Below are positions 1 through 5,101 of a DNA stretch of 5,101 nt, piece after piece (the stretch's first letter is position 1; each line of letters opens with the position of its first letter). The notes under the pieces are model-generated. The model made no database searches. It was not told where the DNA came from and was given only the letters and a program-made list of their open reading frames with translations. A program made the position numbers and the translations under genes. This stretch comes from a virus, in the IMG/VR virus record IMGVR_UViG_3300014637_000001, positions 1 to 5,101 of that record, one strand, 5' to 3'.

Positions 1-118
1 ATATTATACATTATACGAAGCGGTAAAAATAACTATGTGTAATGTATAGTTTTATTTCGGTTTTCCGAAGATTTCAGGATGTGCAATGTTACTTGCACCA
101 TCCTCATCCAAGACATCA
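1..118. repeat. Direct terminal repeat, copy 1 (identical to 4984..5101); marks circular closure or a tandem junction of a 4,983-bp unit
   Basis: Base-by-base comparison of 1..118 with 4984..5101 shows 118/118 identity (offset 4983). Confidence 0.97.
76..104 (-). other. Imperfect hairpin immediately downstream of the gene V-slot ORF (possible transcript 3' structure or origin element)
   Basis: aggatgtgcaa (76-86) pairs with ttgcac-c-atcct (93-104): 6 bp, a 1-nt bulge, then 5 bp, with a 6-nt loop tgttac. A second mini-hairpin ttcgg-tttt-ccgaa lies at 56-69. No U-tract follows on the minus strand. Confidence 0.4.
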
Positions 119-122
119 ATCA

Positions 123-419
123 TTAAATTACCTTTGGCAACTCAACTTGTTTAACGACATACTTCATAGATTTTCCTGAAGTAACCATTTCAAATGTGAT
201 GTCAGCTTCTAACGGAAATTTATGTTGCTTAAGCAACACTAAATTAGTTCGGTCTTGCCAGTTAAATACTTCACAAGCATTGCCAACAGCATTACCTTGA
301 GATTGATCAAGCGGAACCTCACAGTACAAAGCTACATGATCATAATGACGACCATCGTCAGTTTTAAAATCAACAGCCTTAGCACCTAAGATTTTCACTT
401 TGTTTTTAAATTGCATCAT
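123..419 (-). CDS. 98-aa protein in the gene V position; putative ssDNA-binding protein (assigned by synteny only)
   Basis: ATG at 417-419 lies 2 nt after the Rep stop (TAG, 422-424). GGAGA sits 8 nt upstream. Size and position directly after the initiator match inovirus gene V / rstB-slot proteins. No motif I can recognise with certainty. Confidence 0.55.
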   Translation of the reverse strand: MMQFKNKVKILGAKAVDFKTDDGRHYDHVALYCEVPLDQSQGNAVGNACEVFNWQDRTNLVLLKQHKFPLEADITFEMVTSGKSMKYVVKQVELPKVI

Positions 420-421
420 TG

Positions 422-1579
422 CTACATTCTCCGAGCAGTTATAAGCACATGATCCAACCGCTTCGGATAAGCGAATTGATCAGAGCAAGAAATAATATTG
501 ATTAACTCTTCAGGTTCAAAAACCTGTTTAAAAACATTGATATACTTGCCATATTGGTGTTTAAGATTTTTAATAGCAGTATCAAAGTTAATGCGTGCAA
601 CCTTTTGAATTGTTTCAATTCTTGCAGGTTGAATATCTTCAGATAGAAATGCGAAACATGGATATGAGGCTATAAAATACTCACTTGGAGCCAACAACAT
701 ATCGAACGGTAAAACGCGATCAATTGATTTAAATTCAACTTCAGCACGTTGCCAGTTATCATTCGGATCACCCTCAGCACGACCTTTCTCGTACAAACGA
801 AGCATCTTGCCTGATTCACGTGCACCGACCATTAAAGTGCGTCCTTTACCGTTTGGACGTTTCCAATTGCCTTTATGTTCGATATTCGGCATACGGTTAC
901 CACAGCTAAAACCGCCTAAACCATCTTGCATATTGCCCCAGTCAACATTGATCTTTTTACCTTCAAAATCGTCATGTGCAATATCAACACGAGTTAATTT
1001 AGCTCGTTTGGCCATAGTTACTAAGAAGTTGTAAAGTCTTAATTCCCAACCACTTTTAGCAAAGTTGCAACCACGACCGTTGATCATAATTAAGATGGTA
1101 TTTCGTTGACCGCCAATGCAGACAAATCCGAAATCTTCACCTAGTACATAGCTTTCTTTATAGAAATTAAGACCACCATGACGGCATGCAGTCGTTGAGA
1201 ATCCAAAGATGTGGTGTAACTGGTGGTCCAGTTCTTCTACAGCAGCCGTCCAACGGTGTGTATCGATGATGTATTCGTCTTCATTCCAATACTTGTCACC
1301 TAAAGTCTCAATTCCGATTGTGAAATTTACCCAGTCAATCACGGCAATTTCATTGTCAGCAGGCAAACGGCATTGAACTGGTTTAACACCTGAAGATGTC
1401 ATCACCATATGAGCATATGGAATTGTGTATAACGAATGCTCTTGATACGGGAGATCGGCGTCTTGCAGTTGCGTATCGGATGTCTTTACCCCCATCTTAT
1501 TAATGGGGGTTACAACCATCGCATTTTTCAATCCCCCCGATAAAGCTGTGGGGTTTGGTTGTTTTTTATACTTATCCAT
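422..1579 (-). CDS. Rolling-circle replication initiation protein, Rep_trans (PF02486-like) family, as in CTXphi RstA and many inovirus pII analogues
   Basis: 385-aa ORF with GGGGA 5 nt upstream of the ATG. Motifs typical of the family as I recall it: KLTRVDIAHDDF, GRTLMVGARESGKMLRLYEKGRAEG, WQRAEVEFK. Confidence 0.88.
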   Translation of the reverse strand: MDKYKKQPNPTALSGGLKNAMVVTPINKMGVKTSDTQLQDADLPYQEHSLYTIPYAHMVMTSSGVKPVQCRLPADNEIAVIDWVNFTIGIETLGDKYWNEDEYIIDTHRWTAAVEELDHQLHHIFGFSTTACRHGGLNFYKESYVLGEDFGFVCIGGQRNTILIMINGRGCNFAKSGWELRLYNFLVTMAKRAKLTRVDIAHDDFEGKKINVDWGNMQDGLGGFSCGNRMPNIEHKGNWKRPNGKGRTLMVGARESGKMLRLYEKGRAEGDPNDNWQRAEVEFKSIDRVLPFDMLLAPSEYFIASYPCFAFLSEDIQPARIETIQKVARINFDTAIKNLKHQYGKYINVFKQVFEPEELINIISCSDQFAYPKRLDHVLITARRM

Positions 1580-1745
1580 TGCATTCCCCAGATTTAATAA
1601 TCATGTCGTAAGATTGACGAATAACAATCAATTCACGAAGAACTGGATCCGTAAATGCAACAGAATCGTTGTGCATGAGAGATTCAATTAAATCCATTAA
1701 CTCAGATCGATGTCTAACAATCAGATCCATTTGCTCTTTATCCAT
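1572..1745 (-). CDS. 57-aa hypothetical helical protein (hand-found ORF, absent from the ORF track)
   Basis: My translation: MDKEQMDLIVRHRSELMDLIESLMHNDSVAFTDPVLRELIVIRQSYDMIIKSGECNG. Its ATG (1743-1745) shares one base with the TAA of the upstream 93-aa ORF (TAATG). Its TAA (1572-1574) lies inside ATGGATAA at the start of rep. GGGGA sits 7 nt upstream of the ATG. It fills an otherwise non-coding 165-bp gap. Confidence 0.6.
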   Translation of the reverse strand: MDKEQMDLIVRHRSELMDLIESLMHNDSVAFTDPVLRELIVIRQSYDMIIKSGECNG

Positions 1746-2026
1746 TAGCAAATCCCCATAGAGCGAAAATTGTCATTCTCAGCTTTCAACATGTCGTAGT
1801 ACTCCGCTACTTTGGCAGACTTATAGCCCCACTCCACCATGCACATTTCTATGTGACGTAGAACAAGCTCCGACTCGTAAGCAGGATTTCCCCCAACAAC
1901 TAACGTGCAGGCTCTATCGAAAATGATCTTAGCCACGATCTCGAATGCTTGTTCTTTATCCATATATGATTTATCACAAATGATATTTTGTGTTTTTATA
2001 ACATCTAATTTGTGATTTAGCAACAT
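1745..2026 (-). CDS. Hypothetical small protein (93 aa maximal; possibly 72 aa from the internal ATG at 1961-1963)
   Basis: First ORF downstream of the divergent promoter region. Neither candidate start has an SD. A sigma70-like promoter (TTGCTA-17 nt-TATAAA on the minus strand, plus coordinates 2018-2023 and 1995-2000) overlaps the upstream ATG, which favours the MDKEQ start. Confidence 0.6.
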   Translation of the reverse strand: MLLNHKLDVIKTQNIICDKSYMDKEQAFEIVAKIIFDRACTLVVGGNPAYESELVLRHIEMCMVEWGYKSAKVAEYYDMLKAENDNFRSMGIC

Positions 2027-2036
2027 ATCATAAAAT
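1973..2036. promoter_or_regulatory. Divergent promoter/operator region between the replication operon (-) and the RHH regulator gene (+)
   Basis: Minus strand: TTGCTA (2023-2018), 17 nt, TATAAA (2000-1995). Plus strand: TTGTGA (2010-2015), 15 nt, TAAAAT (2031-2036). The TTTGTG(AT) motif occurs three times: ATCACAAA at 1973-1980 (inverted), TTTGTG at 1987-1992 and TTTGTGAT at 2009-2016. The first two form the palindrome cacaaa-N6-tttgtg. Confidence 0.45.
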
Positions 2037-2077
2037 ATAAATCAGATATGATGTGTCACCTTTTAGGAGTAAGACAA

Positions 2078-2272
2078 ATGGCAGTTACAGTTAGACTTAG
2101 AGACGAAGAAGAAGATATGGTCAAAGAAACGACCTTAGAAATGATGTTCGAAACAAAAATCCGAATTAAAGAATCGGATGTACTTCACACTTTAATAAGA
2201 AAGTATTTAAAAGACATCAAAACTGAAGATGTGATGAAGTACCGAGCGGAAGTACTTAAAAAAGACGATTAA
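2078..2272 (+). CDS. 64-aa ribbon-helix-helix (CopG/Arc-like) transcriptional regulator; candidate phage repressor (functional analogue of rstR)
   Basis: AGGAG (2065-2069) sits 8 nt upstream of the ATG at 2078. The N-terminus MAVTVRLRDEEE fits an RHH beta-strand, followed by two helices (DMVKETTLEMMFE; SDVLHTLIRKYLKD). It is the only + strand gene and is divergent from the rep operon. The track start at 2048 lacks an SD. Confidence 0.6.
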   Translation: MAVTVRLRDEEEDMVKETTLEMMFETKIRIKESDVLHTLIRKYLKDIKTEDVMKYRAEVLKKDD

Positions 2273-2319
2273 TTGTTTATATTGATCCAGAGTACTAACT
2301 GCCCCCTGCTCTAGCCTTC

Positions 2320-2418
2320 AGATCGCATAATGCCGACTATGTAAAAAAACGCCGATTTGCCCACAGGAATGGTTGCAAATCGGCTATGTTACATAATCTG
2401 GCATACATTATGCGAACT
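2320..2418. other. ~99-nt imperfect hairpin built from two inverted dif-like half-sites; candidate folded ssDNA attP (CTXphi-like), alternatively a packaging signal
   Basis: Plus strand 2320-2347: AGATCGCATAA-TGCCGA-CTATGTAAAAA. Minus strand 2418-2386: AGTTCGCATAA-TGTATGCCAGA-TTATGTAACAT. The arms pair 2320-2330/2408-2418 (10 of 11) and 2338-2344/2389-2395 (7 of 7). The central part pairs with 4-nt and 1-nt bulges. The inner stem is 2351-2360/2375-2384 (10 bp). Confidence 0.5.
2343..2384 (-). terminator. Rho-independent terminator for the 73-aa gene (minus strand); may also stop the convergent RHH transcript
   Basis: Perfect 10-bp stem gccgatttgc/gcaaatcggc with a 14-nt loop. On the minus strand it is followed by g + T7 (A7 at 2343-2349 on plus). 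It lies 43 nt downstream of the 73-aa ORF stop. Confidence 0.6.
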
Positions 2419-2426
2419 TTCAGTCA

Positions 2427-2648
2427 TTAATTTTTAGGCAAAGAATTATCTGCAAAGGTGGTTACTTGCTCTAAAATATCAAACGCTTTATTAATACTTT
2501 CTTTATCAGTTAAGTAACCACATTTCACTAAAACATCAACTGCACCAGATAACTCGTTTAGATTTCTTAAACAATCCAAAGGTAATAAAGAAGTATCTAT
2601 CACTTGGCTTGCTTTTTCTTCCAAATATTCAAAAACTTGTTTTGTCAT
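2427..2648 (-). CDS. 73-aa acidic, soluble hypothetical protein
   Basis: ATG at 2646-2648 with GGGGGA 3-4 nt upstream. It has its own upstream TATAAT (2700-2695 on minus) and downstream terminator. There is no hydrophobic segment, so it is not a pVI analogue. Confidence 0.65.
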   Translation of the reverse strand: MTKQVFEYLEEKASQVIDTSLLPLDCLRNLNELSGAVDVLVKCGYLTDKESINKAFDILEQVTTFADNSLPKN

Positions 2649-2662
2649 ATATCCCCCGTCAA

Positions 2663-2748
2663 AGTGTCTAGACTACGCCTTGAGACACTCAAAAATTATA
2701 CAAGATTTAATTGTTTACTCGATGTGTCTCAATTCCCCTGAAGACACT
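2663..2748. promoter_or_regulatory. Two copies of an inverted-repeat unit GTGTCT-N12/13-AGACAC in the pIII-like/orf73 intergenic region; candidate operators flanking a TATAAT -10
   Basis: agtgtct 2663-2669 pairs with agacact 2683-2689. gtgtct 2724-2729 pairs with agacac 2742-2747. Unit centres are ~60 bp apart. A minus-strand TATAAT at 2700-2695 lies between the two units. Confidence 0.4.
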
Positions 2749-2864
2749 TCTCTGTTAATTCTACGTCACACCGAAGAGCCGGTTTTTGTAATCAAAGAGG
2801 AAGATTTTCAAGTCTTTACAAATCCCAATTTGGATCGCGTTCAAGCCCCCTTTGTATATAATTT

Positions 2865-4283
2865 TCAGCGTATTGAATTGGTTGCTGACGTGGTTGTGTC
2901 TGCTCCAGCTAGAACCGCAGGCTTAAAGAAAATAAGAGCATTACAAACAGGTTGATAAGGTAATTCAATCGTATAACTTTGCCCCATCACCGTAAATTGA
3001 ACAGAATCCTTAGGACAATCATTTGAGCCTGTAAGAGTGACTTTTTCTGCTGATACATCATCATCATTAATTTCAGCTTCTTCTGGATCAGAATGATCTG
3101 GATCTTCTTTCATCCACTCATCTGTCTTTTTCCAGTCGTCATACCATTCGCACATCTTAAATGCCCATTCACAGAAGACAGGAAATTCAATAGAAATAGA
3201 CTGGCCACCAGTAGGATTACCATCAGCATCTTTTATTGGTTCTGATTTACCATCAGCAGTACCGCCATCATCTTTCCAAGAGCGGTCATTTACGTTAGGT
3301 TGTGATGAAGTTGGAGGATTTGAATAACGTGGATCACCAAAAGGTGCAGGCTGACCATCTGGAGTTAATGGAGCATTTTTAATTTTATCATCCATTTCCT
3401 TAGCAAGATCATCGCCAATACCCGTTGGATCATGCTTATATGCGTCTGCAACAGATTCATTCATTAAACCAGTGTTAACACGTGCATCAAGTGTTGGATC
3501 AACTGGGTCGGTGTAACCTTCACCGAGCATTGCAGCACCCAACAATTCAGGCGTTAAAGGTATCTTTTCTTTAGCAGCGTTAGGGTCAAAATCAGGATTT
3601 TTATATTGCAGAATTGCTGAAGAACCAGTAGTCGTAGTAGTAGCACCATTTTTCCAAGTGAATTTACAAGTTAAAGGTCTTTCAGTTGAAGAGCTATAAG
3701 TATAGTTACGGCCAGGTAAGACTTTATTTAAATACTGCATTTCGAGCATACAAGAATCTCGCGCAGTACATGAAGATGTATTAGCTTGTCCACCATTCTG
3801 AGCATAAACAAGGAATTCACATTCTTTATTAACACGCTTGTATTTAACGTATCCACCCTCAGTCATCACCCAACCAATGCCCTCGATTAGTTGCTGTACA
3901 GCATAAACACCAAGCAATTGCACACCCGGATTTCTTGCATAAAAAGCTACACGTTGAAGCATTGTTGCGCCGACTTTGCTAGCAGTAGGTACTGTTTCAG
4001 CAATAGCAATTTTAGTAACAGTCCTACTTTTAGCTGTTACAGGATCAGATTCTAGAAATGAACGCGCAGAACGTCCGTAGACACGTTTTGCGTAACCCTC
4101 ACGATTTTGCTGTAATTTAATTTCACGCTGTAGCCACCAGTCACCGTCATCAACTGCATTGGCTTCGTTCATTAGAATTATTGGTGAAAGGATAATTGAG
4201 ATGGATAAGTAAAAGCGGATTGTTGTTGAAATTGTTCTTTTTAAAACATTTTTATACCAATATAAATCATCATTAATAGCCAT
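2865..4283 (-). CDS. 472-aa secreted protein in the gene III slot; putative minor coat / host adsorption protein (pIII-like)
   Basis: Signal peptide (KNVLKR..FYLSISIILSPIILMNEANA|VDD). N-terminal domain with 4 Cys, then a long Pro/Asp/Gly/Thr-rich linker. C-terminal Cys/Trp-rich acidic domain (FCEWAFKMCEWYDDWKKTDEW) with a modestly hydrophobic tail (CNALIFFKPAVLAGA). It lies directly downstream of the major coat gene. No Walker A motif. Confidence 0.62.
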   Translation of the reverse strand: MAINDDLYWYKNVLKRTISTTIRFYLSISIILSPIILMNEANAVDDGDWWLQREIKLQQNREGYAKRVYGRSARSFLESDPVTAKSRTVTKIAIAETVPTASKVGATMLQRVAFYARNPGVQLLGVYAVQQLIEGIGWVMTEGGYVKYKRVNKECEFLVYAQNGGQANTSSCTARDSCMLEMQYLNKVLPGRNYTYSSSTERPLTCKFTWKNGATTTTTGSSAILQYKNPDFDPNAAKEKIPLTPELLGAAMLGEGYTDPVDPTLDARVNTGLMNESVADAYKHDPTGIGDDLAKEMDDKIKNAPLTPDGQPAPFGDPRYSNPPTSSQPNVNDRSWKDDGGTADGKSEPIKDADGNPTGGQSISIEFPVFCEWAFKMCEWYDDWKKTDEWMKEDPDHSDPEEAEINDDDVSAEKVTLTGSNDCPKDSVQFTVMGQSYTIELPYQPVCNALIFFKPAVLAGADTTTSATNSIR

Positions 4284-4314
4284 ATGTACGCCCCAATATC
4301 ACCCATGCTTCACC

Positions 4315-4358
4315 CCGTAAACGCGACTGCGAGCCCTCGCGCGTTTACGGTGGCTCGC
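4315..4358. other. GC-rich structured element between the coat and pIII-like genes (two competing stems)
   Basis: An 11-bp perfect stem ccgtaaacgcg (4315-4325) / cgcgtttacgg (4340-4350) with a 14-nt loop. gcgagcc (4329-4335, inside that loop) is complementary to ggctcgc (4352-4358). No U-tract follows on the coding (minus) strand. Confidence 0.5.
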
Positions 4359-4375
4359 ATGTAATACATTGGTTC

Positions 4376-4594
4376 TTAGAATGCAGAACGGATGTATTTA
4401 AATACTTTAATACCTAGCGGAATCAAAATTGCAGCAGCAGCAACAGCAGCCCCCGCAGTTGCAGCACCTGATAACTCACCAGTAATTGAAGTAGTATCTA
4501 CAGCAGCATTAGATGCAGCAGCAGCCCCCGCAGCAGACGCTACTACAGCAGCTTGTTTTAAACGTTGAATCATTGCTTGTTTTTTAGTGTTCAT
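4376..4594 (-). CDS. Inovirus major coat protein precursor (pVIII-like), 72 aa
   Basis: AAGGAG sits 6 nt upstream of the ATG at 4592-4594. Leader MNTKKQAMIQRLKQAAVVASAAGAAAASNA ends in an A-x-A-type cleavage site. The ~42-aa mature part has an acidic N-terminus (AVDTTSITGE), an Ala-rich hydrophobic core and a basic C-terminus (KVFKYIRSAF), which is the classic pVIII layout. The track TTG start at 4615 is unlikely. Confidence 0.88.
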   Translation of the reverse strand: MNTKKQAMIQRLKQAAVVASAAGAAAASNAAVDTTSITGELSGAATAGAAVAAAAILIPLGIKVFKYIRSAF

Positions 4595-4604
4595 GATGAA
4601 CTCC

Positions 4605-4799
4605 TTACTTTTCAAAATTTTGCACCCGTATGACTTTTATGGCCCATACGACTGCGAGACATAACCAAAAAGCGCCCCCAATTTGTGTTGCTTCGGCGTA
4701 GCTCATTGGTGGTAAATAAAGGTCAGCTTGACCCCATGTAAGACAGGTCTGCACCCCATTAGCATCGGATGACGATAATTGCTTACAGACCATATCCAT
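4605..4799 (-). CDS. 64-aa small membrane protein with one C-terminal TM helix; possible minor virion or assembly protein (pVII/pIX slot)
   Basis: ATG at 4797-4799 with GGGGA 9 nt upstream. TM segment IGGAFWLCLAVVWAIKVI. Its stop TAA (4605-4607) overlaps the coat gene SD (agTAAGGAG), implying coupled expression. Confidence 0.6.
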   Translation of the reverse strand: MDMVCKQLSSSDANGVQTCLTWGQADLYLPPMSYAEATQIGGAFWLCLAVVWAIKVIRVQNFEK

Positions 4800-4819
4800 T
4801 TCTTAAAATCCCCAATAAA

Positions 4820-4855
4820 TTGCTGGCTTGCGTTCCCGCCCCCAAAAGCCAGCAA
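4820..4855 (-). terminator. Stem-loop just upstream of the structural module (terminator/attenuator-like, or a DNA-level element)
   Basis: A 10-bp stem ttgctggctt (4820-4829) / aagccagcaa (4846-4855) with a G/C-rich 16-nt loop. On the minus strand it is followed by TTTATT and then the GGGGA SD of the 64-aa ORF. Confidence 0.4.
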
Positions 4856-4860
4856 ATCTG

Positions 4861-4950
4861 TTATTTACACTTATAAAAATGGATGCAGTAACTTGAATGT
4901 TTTGTAAACCCTGCACCGCACTTCTTGCATTTATAAACGTATTCTGTCAT
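4861..4950 (-). CDS. Possible 29-aa mini-ORF with a C2HC zinc-finger-like pattern (low confidence as a real gene)
   Basis: My translation: MTEYVYKCKKCGAGFTKHSSYCIHFYKCK. It fits Y-x-C-x2-C-x3-F-x5-Y-x2-H-x3-C. The stop lies 5 nt before the 4820-4855 hairpin. No SD upstream (tatttttaatATG). Confidence 0.3.
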   Translation of the reverse strand: MTEYVYKCKKCGAGFTKHSSYCIHFYKCK

Positions 4951-4976
4951 ATTAAAAATACACGCAAGTTATTGAT

Positions 4977-5004
4977 TTTTAACATATTATACATTATACG
5001 AAGC
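4977..5004 (-). other. 28-bp dif-like XerC/XerD recombination site (candidate dsDNA attP)
   Basis: Minus strand reads GCTTCGTATAA-TGTATA-ATATGTTAAAA. Against E. coli dif GGTGCGCATAA-TGTATA-TTATGTTAAAT this is 8/11, 6/6 and 9/11, total 23/28. The TTCGTATAA XerC arm resembles Acinetobacter pdif-type sites as I recall them. The site spans the circular junction, so 1..21 repeats its XerC-side part. Confidence 0.6.
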
Positions 5005-5101
5005 GGTAAAAATAACTATGTGTAATGTATAGTTTTATTTCGGTTTTCCGAAGATTTCAGGATGTGCAATGTTACTTGCACCATCCTCATCCAAGACATC
5101 A
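4984..5101. repeat. Direct terminal repeat, copy 2 (identical to 1..118)
   Basis: Same comparison as copy 1. The repeat runs to the last base of the window, so its true length could be limited by the window edge. Confidence 0.97.

Follow-up and report, generated by a model that had tools for sequence, protein, structure and literature searches.

A dif-like hairpin as a probable CTX-type folded attachment site in an Acinetobacter filamentous phage

In the literature surveyed, the integration of single-stranded DNA by host XerCD recombinases via a folded attP has been described only for CTXphi and RS1 of V. cholerae. The CTX type is defined in this literature by inverted partner sites, their spacers, the fold and the junction at dif, all of which are seen in the V. 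cholerae array GU942563.1, which we scanned with the same pattern as the loci described below (the CTXphi record KJ619459.1 does not include the attP region). Each RS1/CTX unit of this array begins with AGTGCGyATTA|TGTGGCGCGGCA-TTATGTTGAGG, with a spacer of 12 nt, and is accompanied, about 150 nt further downstream, by a partner site in inverted orientation whose spacer is 7 nt, while the array end reads AGTGCGTATTA|TGTATG-TTATGTTAAAT. The attP(+) of CTXphi, when folded with the tool used throughout this study, forms an arm duplex, a 5-nt bulge, a short pairing, a 1-nt bulge and a XerD-arm duplex.

Tandem filamentous prophages flanked by replication modules have been reported in Acinetobacter, with the involvement of XerCD/dif suggested by analogy, and Xer-bounded modules are common in this genus. 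No definition of an attP or of a hairpin was found in the surveyed literature on Acinetobacter filamentous prophages and pdif modules, a survey that did not extend to Renda et al. 2016. In A. baumannii, cleavage of dif by XerC is independent of FtsK, whereas XerD depends on it, and the motif ATAA-central region-TTAT has been reported to be essential.

The window, that is, the whole analysed stretch of 5,101 nt, represents an inovirus of Acinetobacter of about 4983 bp, as a circular or tandem unit. Its positions 4984..5101 are an exact 118-nt repeat of positions 1-118, which sets the unit genome at 4983 bp. The nearest relatives of this genome are Acinetobacter prophages and IMG/VR contigs; megablast against GenBank phages gave no match, and an Rfam search returned nothing relevant. 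The genes and long ORFs lie on the minus strand and encode an ssb-like small protein (123-419), a Rep_trans replication protein (422-1579; Rep_trans 2.4e-18; PHROG 453, 1.5e-82), the products of orf59 and orf93 of the replication and regulation module and, in the structural module, the product of orf73 (2427-2648), a pIII-like protein of 472 aa (2865-4283), the major coat protein of the Inovirus coat B type (4376-4615; Phage_Coat_B 1.9e-11) and the product of orf64 (4605-4799). Only orf74 (2048-2272, plus strand) has the opposite orientation, and it occupies the position of rstR in CTXphi. Between the divergent orf93 and orf74 there is an imperfect inverted repeat of 30 nt (1961-1990 and 2021-2050, 77% complementary), which could be an operator of this regulatory region. 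In inoviruses, the genes lie on the strand that is packaged, and for this reason the minus strand of the window is taken as the presumed viral strand.

The replication protein shows remote homology to RstA of CTXphi (28.9% identity, E = 1e-12). Pfam and profile annotation of the window revealed neither an integrase nor a transposase, and no Pfam match to a XafT/XafV-like factor. A filamentous phage with a rolling-circle Rep and without an integrase of its own is what is expected of integrative mobile elements exploiting Xer (IMEX) of the CTX type. Exact look-ups of the ssb-like protein and orf73 returned records (for orf73, these were loci L084, the complete chromosome CP033754.1, and L087), while that of the Rep protein returned none. 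About 1.4 kb of the 6.2-kb relatives, with the genes of DUF2523 (pVI-like) and Zot (assembly ATPase), is missing here at window positions 2807-2906, and with these genes missing the assembly of virions without a helper appears improbable.

According to the original prediction, two inverted dif-like sites at 2320-2418 fold into one long hairpin in which XerC-like and XerD-like arms become duplex around 4-nt and 1-nt bulges. Both sites lie where they had been placed. Site A (2418-2386, minus strand) reads AGTTCGCATAA-TGTATGCCAGA-TTATGTAACAT. Its XerC-binding-like arm, AGTTCGCATAA (2408..2418), opens the stem at its 5' end, as read on the presumed viral strand, and the 3' edge of this arm, 2408|2407, is the crossover point. 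The arm is followed by a top-strand central region of 11 nt (2397..2407), partly bulged in the fold, whose first three nucleotides, TGT, match the dif central region TGTATA, and by a XerD-binding-like arm (2386..2396) that shares 9/11 bases with the dif arm TTATGTTAAAT. The inverted partner, site B (2320..2347, plus strand), reads AGATCGCATAA-TGCCGA-CTATGTAAAAA, and its complement makes up the bottom strand of the stem, where the arms are separated by 6 nt. Two XerC/XerD site pairs in inverted orientation, A on the minus and B on the plus strand, are a further feature of CTX-type IMEX. The pattern TTCGYATAA-N6-13-WTATGT has two matches in the window (the second one at 4982-5002) vs. 0.00 expected from 200 shuffles.

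Folding of the minus strand of 2310-2425 as ssDNA gives the predicted structure, with an energy of -26.9 kcal/mol (z = -5.5; 0/200 shuffles as stable). The XerC-arm duplex is followed by a 4-nt bulge (TGTA), paired TGCC/GGCA, a 1-nt bulge and the duplex GATTATGTAA/TTACATAGTC; between the duplex XerC-like and XerD-like arms there are thus 11 nt in the top and 6 nt in the bottom strand. In silico, this layout is shared with CTXphi attP(+), and duplex arms around a centre that is only partly paired are what characterizes the single-stranded fold of CTX-type IMEX. Since the plus strand folds about equally well (-25.5 kcal/mol, z = -6.4), folding alone does not pick the strand. The tip of the fold is an inner stem-loop (2343..2384, minus strand) made of the 10-bp GC-rich stem GCCGATTTGC/GCAAATCGGC (2351-2360 with 2375-2384) and T7 (2343-2349). 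This stem and the T-run come after orf73 in the sequence, and the tip of the putative attP hairpin probably serves as the orf73 terminator as well; a terminator scan limited to loops of 8 nt did not call this stem, whose loop has 14 nt.

The dif of Acinetobacter has the form xxTTCGyATAA-TGTATA-TTATGTTAAAT (the ADP1 copy is GATTCGTATAATGTATATTATGTTAAAT), and the arms of the hairpin are therefore dif-like for the correct host.

Every long-spacer site was folded across 70 related loci (denoted L below), and the plan of the hairpin recurs in at least five diverged families, in which loops and spacers vary. It comprises a XerC arm, a top spacer of 7-13 nt that is partly bulged, a XerD arm, an inner hairpin, the XerD-arm complement, 6-7 nt and TTATGCGAA. 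In the families nearest the window, the top spacer begins with TGT. The arms are always 6-7 nt apart on the bottom strand, but at a variable distance on the top strand, the inner loops range from 40 to more than 100 nt, and the inner hairpin has been swapped wholesale between families, with the stem and T-run retained. Some of the hairpin families replicate by a Phage_CRI protein and not by Rep_trans.

For the analysis of covariation, 23 distinct diverged hairpins were aligned and compared with a structure hand-drawn from individual folds. With this structure, 94.2% of cells pair, vs. 28-42% with the partners slid, nine pairs are altered on both sides, and 0/500 shuffles reach the observed values; RNAalifold, applied independently to the aligned hairpins, arrives at the same outer stem. 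Position 7 of the arm switches between C-G and T-A, and position 4 is T-A, A-T or G-C. Integration places the covarying partners at opposite ends of the element, and only in the circular form are they adjacent. This pattern of substitutions indicates that the fold of the hairpin is under selection. The arm cores TTCGyATAA and GATTATGT are invariant in all 23 hairpins, which points to recognition by a protein and not to pairing alone.

To map the breakpoints, the sites were sorted by their upstream 45 nt. The junctions come from relatives whose hairpins are 92-97% identical to that of the window, and they are resolved to the interval ATAA|TGT. In Acinetobacter prophage arrays at dif, homology breaks between the XerC arm and the top-strand spacer, which corresponds to window 2408|2407. 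The end of the replication module, ...TTATTTTTACC GCTTCGTATAA, precedes six different sequences (the window-type spacer, three other hairpin spacers, the sequence of site C described below, and dif itself), and the switch occurs directly after ATAA. Conversely, the window-type spacer is preceded by many unrelated contexts, with the break always right after ATAA. The XerC arm thus moves with the upstream context, and everything 3' of the arm moves with the downstream element. In L014, a foreign element of 2.25 kb interrupts the sequence exactly at the arm: window position 2407 is on one side of it and 2417 on the other, and each of its ends carries a copy of the arm.

Both prophage ends could be identified in relatives. 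At attL, the chromosomal arm TGTTCGTATAA is joined to the window-type spacer TGTGTGCCTGA; the conserved left chromosomal flank, ...CTAyATAAT TGTTCGTATAA|TGTGTGCCTGA-TTATGTAACAT, lies beside fimbrial genes (L072-L075, L080, L085), and this left junction is an attL made with the hairpin family of the window. In L003, L020 and L010, a scaffold gap or contig end precedes the left chromosomal flank. At attR of L084 and L087, the identical 40-nt context of the window and AGTTCGCATAA are joined to TAGAGA-TTATGTTAAAT, and the 1000 nt past this junction share 98-99% identity with the sequence flanking dif on the right in L085 and L067. The central region directly after the phage XerC arm is TAGAGA and not TGTATA at both of these sites (L084 8231-8258; L087 345-372), which counts against the reading of the hairpin as attP. 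A relative without site C yields a matching attP and attR: ...GACTG ATTTCGTATAA|spacer is found in L061, and the identical context is joined to TGTATA-TTATGTTAAAT after the Zot gene in L060. The array in L020 consists of five elements head to tail (2145, 2776, 2776, 2229 and 2229 bp), each with a spacer at its start and its own arm at its end, the last arm being joined to TGTATA-TTATGTTAAAT. The rep gene is always on the top strand of dif, as it is in the CTXphi array. Integration at dif, a junction at the XerC position and a dif regenerated with the arm of the element, as in the CTX type, are thus found in close relatives.

Prophage junctions beside dif had been expected at 2407/2408 or at 2330/2331. 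The former position is seen in the prophage arrays and in L084 and L087, while the latter was never seen in the arrays and prophage loci examined, the upstream context of site B being the same in every copy; this fits the use of only one strand.

Several further observations were made at these loci. In L083, IS transposase genes (rve family, HTH; 3780-7640 and 8280-9605) interrupt the structural module of one CP033754.1 prophage copy. The contig of L001 (DAMDNS010000362.1), binned as Ureibacillus, carries an Acinetobacter-type Rep, a hairpin and a perfect Acinetobacter-type dif, and is probably mis-binned. To the right of dif there is a different element, bounded by AAGTCGCATAA-CTTCATT-TTATGTTAAAT with a 7-nt spacer (L003 11540-13783; L004 11545-14011; L023 2666-10175; L079 10427-17936), which has 2.2 kb in some genomes and is a 7.5-kb inovirus with genes on the opposite strand in others. 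Its crossover appears to be on the XerD-arm side.

Results of our analysis suggest, with a probability of roughly 0.78, that the hairpin at 2320-2418 is an attP(+) of the CTX type, which most likely allows this small filamentous phage of Acinetobacter to integrate as single-stranded DNA at the dif of its host. In the circular ssDNA (+) genome, presumably the minus strand of the window, A and B would fold back on each other, and the stem would offer duplex arms to the host XerC and XerD around a centre whose bottom strand has 6 nt and whose top strand has 11 nt, partly bulged. XerC would cut the top strand after ...CGCATAA (2408|2407) and exchange it with the top strand of dif, helped by the common TGT, and the junction would then be resolved by replication. 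Catalysis by XerC only is presumed here, and the FtsK-free cleavage by A. baumannii XerC is compatible with such an exchange, no more. At the left end of the prophage, the phage spacer and hairpin would follow a XerC arm of foreign origin, and at the right end, the centre and XerD arm of dif would follow the phage's own XerC arm, so that dif would be regenerated for the next element. As the site would be masked in duplex DNA, elements would pile up as arrays, and new genomes would arise by rolling-circle replication across neighbouring copies, as in CTXphi/RS1. The positions of the junctions do not separate a folded single strand from a duplex site, and ssDNA is favoured as the substrate because of the conserved partner site, the covariation and the spacer of 11-13 nt that a duplex site would have.

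A canonical duplex dif-like site that the original prediction did not include, site C (4977..5004, minus strand; partly repeated at 1-21 via the terminal repeat), separates the ssb-like gene from the structural genes and reads GCTTCGTATAA-TGTATA-ATATGTTAAAA. Sites A and C split the genome into a replication and regulation module R of 2.4 kb (11..2407, minus strand), with the hairpin, orf74, orf93, orf59, Rep, the ssb-like ORF and its own XerC arm at 11-21, and a structural module S (2408..4993, minus strand), with orf64, the coat protein, the pIII-like protein, orf73 and a terminal XerC arm. Some relatives carry R alone, as tandem satellites of about 2.2 kb with the hairpin, regulators, Rep and ssb (L011, L020, L075 and L076; e.g., L020 9330-13787), and the same arrays include hairpin elements of 2.1-2.8 kb that have a Phage_CRI replication protein instead. 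The identity to relatives changes across C from 98% to 63-83% and across A, in L007, from 65% to 95%, from which it follows that the modules have separate histories, with breakpoints at both Xer sites.

The presence of site C raises the possibility that the full-length phage enters mainly as a duplex replicative form via C, in the manner of VGJ- or TLC-type phages, and that the hairpin serves only the R satellites. In site C, the XerC arm is good, the central region does not differ from that of dif and the XerD arm has 9/11 matches, and the site is a mosaic breakpoint. Most arrays, moreover, read R-(S-R)n and end with ...ssb-arm|TGTATA-TTATGTTAAAT, as would be the case if a satellite had integrated first and the replicative form had followed through C. 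This order of modules has two equally possible readings: either a phage integrated by its hairpin and a satellite came next, or a satellite was there first and a duplex then entered via C. However, none of the arrays begins with a chromosomal arm joined to TGTATA-ATATGT, and no junction that requires site C was found in the arrays examined. The XerD arm of C begins in every copy with ATAT and not TTAT, and its first base thus departs from the motif reported to be essential. The hairpin route is favoured for the full phage because every visible left end is of the arm|spacer type, including the chromosomal left flank in the six loci beside fimbrial genes, and because the full-length prophages of L084 and L087, and likewise that of L060, end with S directly at dif. 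It is also favoured because the S-end arm AGTTCGCATAA is the better pairing partner for the bottom strand of the hairpin (10/11, vs. 7 pairs and 2 G-T with the R-end arm), so that the hairpin appears tuned to the full-length genome. We therefore regard entry of the full phage via C as rather unlikely. Site C itself may be a second duplex attachment site, or may serve the resolution of replicative-form dimers or the loss of S against a regenerated dif.

A different possibility is that site A is an ordinary duplex Xer site, and that its partner B and the fold are irrelevant to recombination. Junctions at the XerC arm of A would be formed whichever form of DNA recombined, and in some families the top spacer has just 7-8 nt, a length tolerated by duplex sites such as cer. 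In the family of the window, however, the spacer of such a duplex would be 11-13 bp, vs. 6 to 7-8 bp in dif, in attP2 of CTXphi and in the bottom strand of the hairpin. Site B is kept in every family, with changes that compensate those of A even where the two sites are at opposite ends of an integrated element, and it is the bottom strand that holds 6-7 nt between the arms as the top strand varies. This makes an ordinary duplex site quite improbable. Finally, although the hairpin is intergenic, lies between convergent genes, includes a terminator-like inner stem with T7 and resembles hairpins held by intergenic regions of inoviruses such as the Ff phages, the idea that it acts solely as a terminator, packaging signal or minus-strand origin and resembles dif incidentally has very little to recommend it and a sole terminator or packaging role is rejected, given arms that are invariant while loops are replaced, a motif not expected by chance and breakpoints exactly at the arm edge beside dif. 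An additional function of the hairpin in termination or packaging is possible.

The R satellite is bounded exactly by both Xer sites of the full phage, which suggests that it can arise by Xer recombination. Tentatively, and as a possibility that we place well below even, the phage may be a composite of two modules that is switched by its host's dimer-resolution enzymes, in which a self-replicating and self-integrating R is combined with the structural cassette S. Such switching would account for arrays of the form R-(S-R)n, for the exact satellites of 2.2 kb and for mosaic breakpoints at A as well as at C. Xer recombination at both sites, including that of C against a regenerated dif, would then shed, capture and swap structural cassettes, and phage and satellite would be converted into each other.

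What would be new here is a CTX-type folded attP outside Vibrio, in Acinetobacter, of which the added second site C may make a variant. The same design occurs in this genus, to which A. baumannii belongs, on several unrelated small replicons and in long arrays at dif. If the hairpin acts as proposed, integration via a folded attP would be a general strategy and not an oddity of Vibrio, and the tandem filamentous prophages of A. baumannii flanked by replication modules would find an explanation. The proposal bears on the movement of Xer-bounded modules in Acinetobacter, and the hairpins would provide ready-made substrates for the already purified XerC and XerD of A. baumannii.

Among known systems, the Acinetobacter filamentous prophages (Af phages, CRAphi) and the pdif modules share the host genus with the phage described here, but pdif modules are duplex sites in inverted pairs on plasmids. 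The hairpin itself fits neither the VGJphi nor the TLCphi class. A VGJ-type attP is a single duplex of about 29 bp with a centre of 6-7 bp, while A has an 11-nt spacer and needs B. In the window, only site C is a single duplex dif-like site like those of VGJphi and TLCphi, and it resembles TLCphi attP in its good XerC arm, dif-identical centre and deviant XerD arm. The R-only relatives are similar to the RS1 satellite in their size of about 2.2 kb and their tandem position beside full-length prophages, but differ from it in that no RstC-like gene was identified in them. The greatest likeness is to CTXphi, and the CTXphi-style architecture proposed originally has gained comparative support from the fold conserved in relatives and their junctions at dif; for the hairpin of the window, this likeness is one of sequence and folding. 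As in CTXphi attP(+), inverted dif-like sites are brought together in one stem, with spacers of 12/7 nt in CTXphi and 11/6 nt in the window, a bulge is located beside the XerC arm, TGT is common with dif, and the junction is between the XerC arm and the spacer. Shared with CTXphi are also a dif regenerated with the arm of the phage, arrays at dif, the lack of an integrase and an RstA-like Rep. The phage differs from CTXphi in its host genus and arm sequences, in the size of the stem-loop (~100 nt vs. ~150 nt) with a single inner hairpin in the family of the window, and in the extra canonical dif-like site between the replication and structural modules, which has no counterpart in CTXphi.
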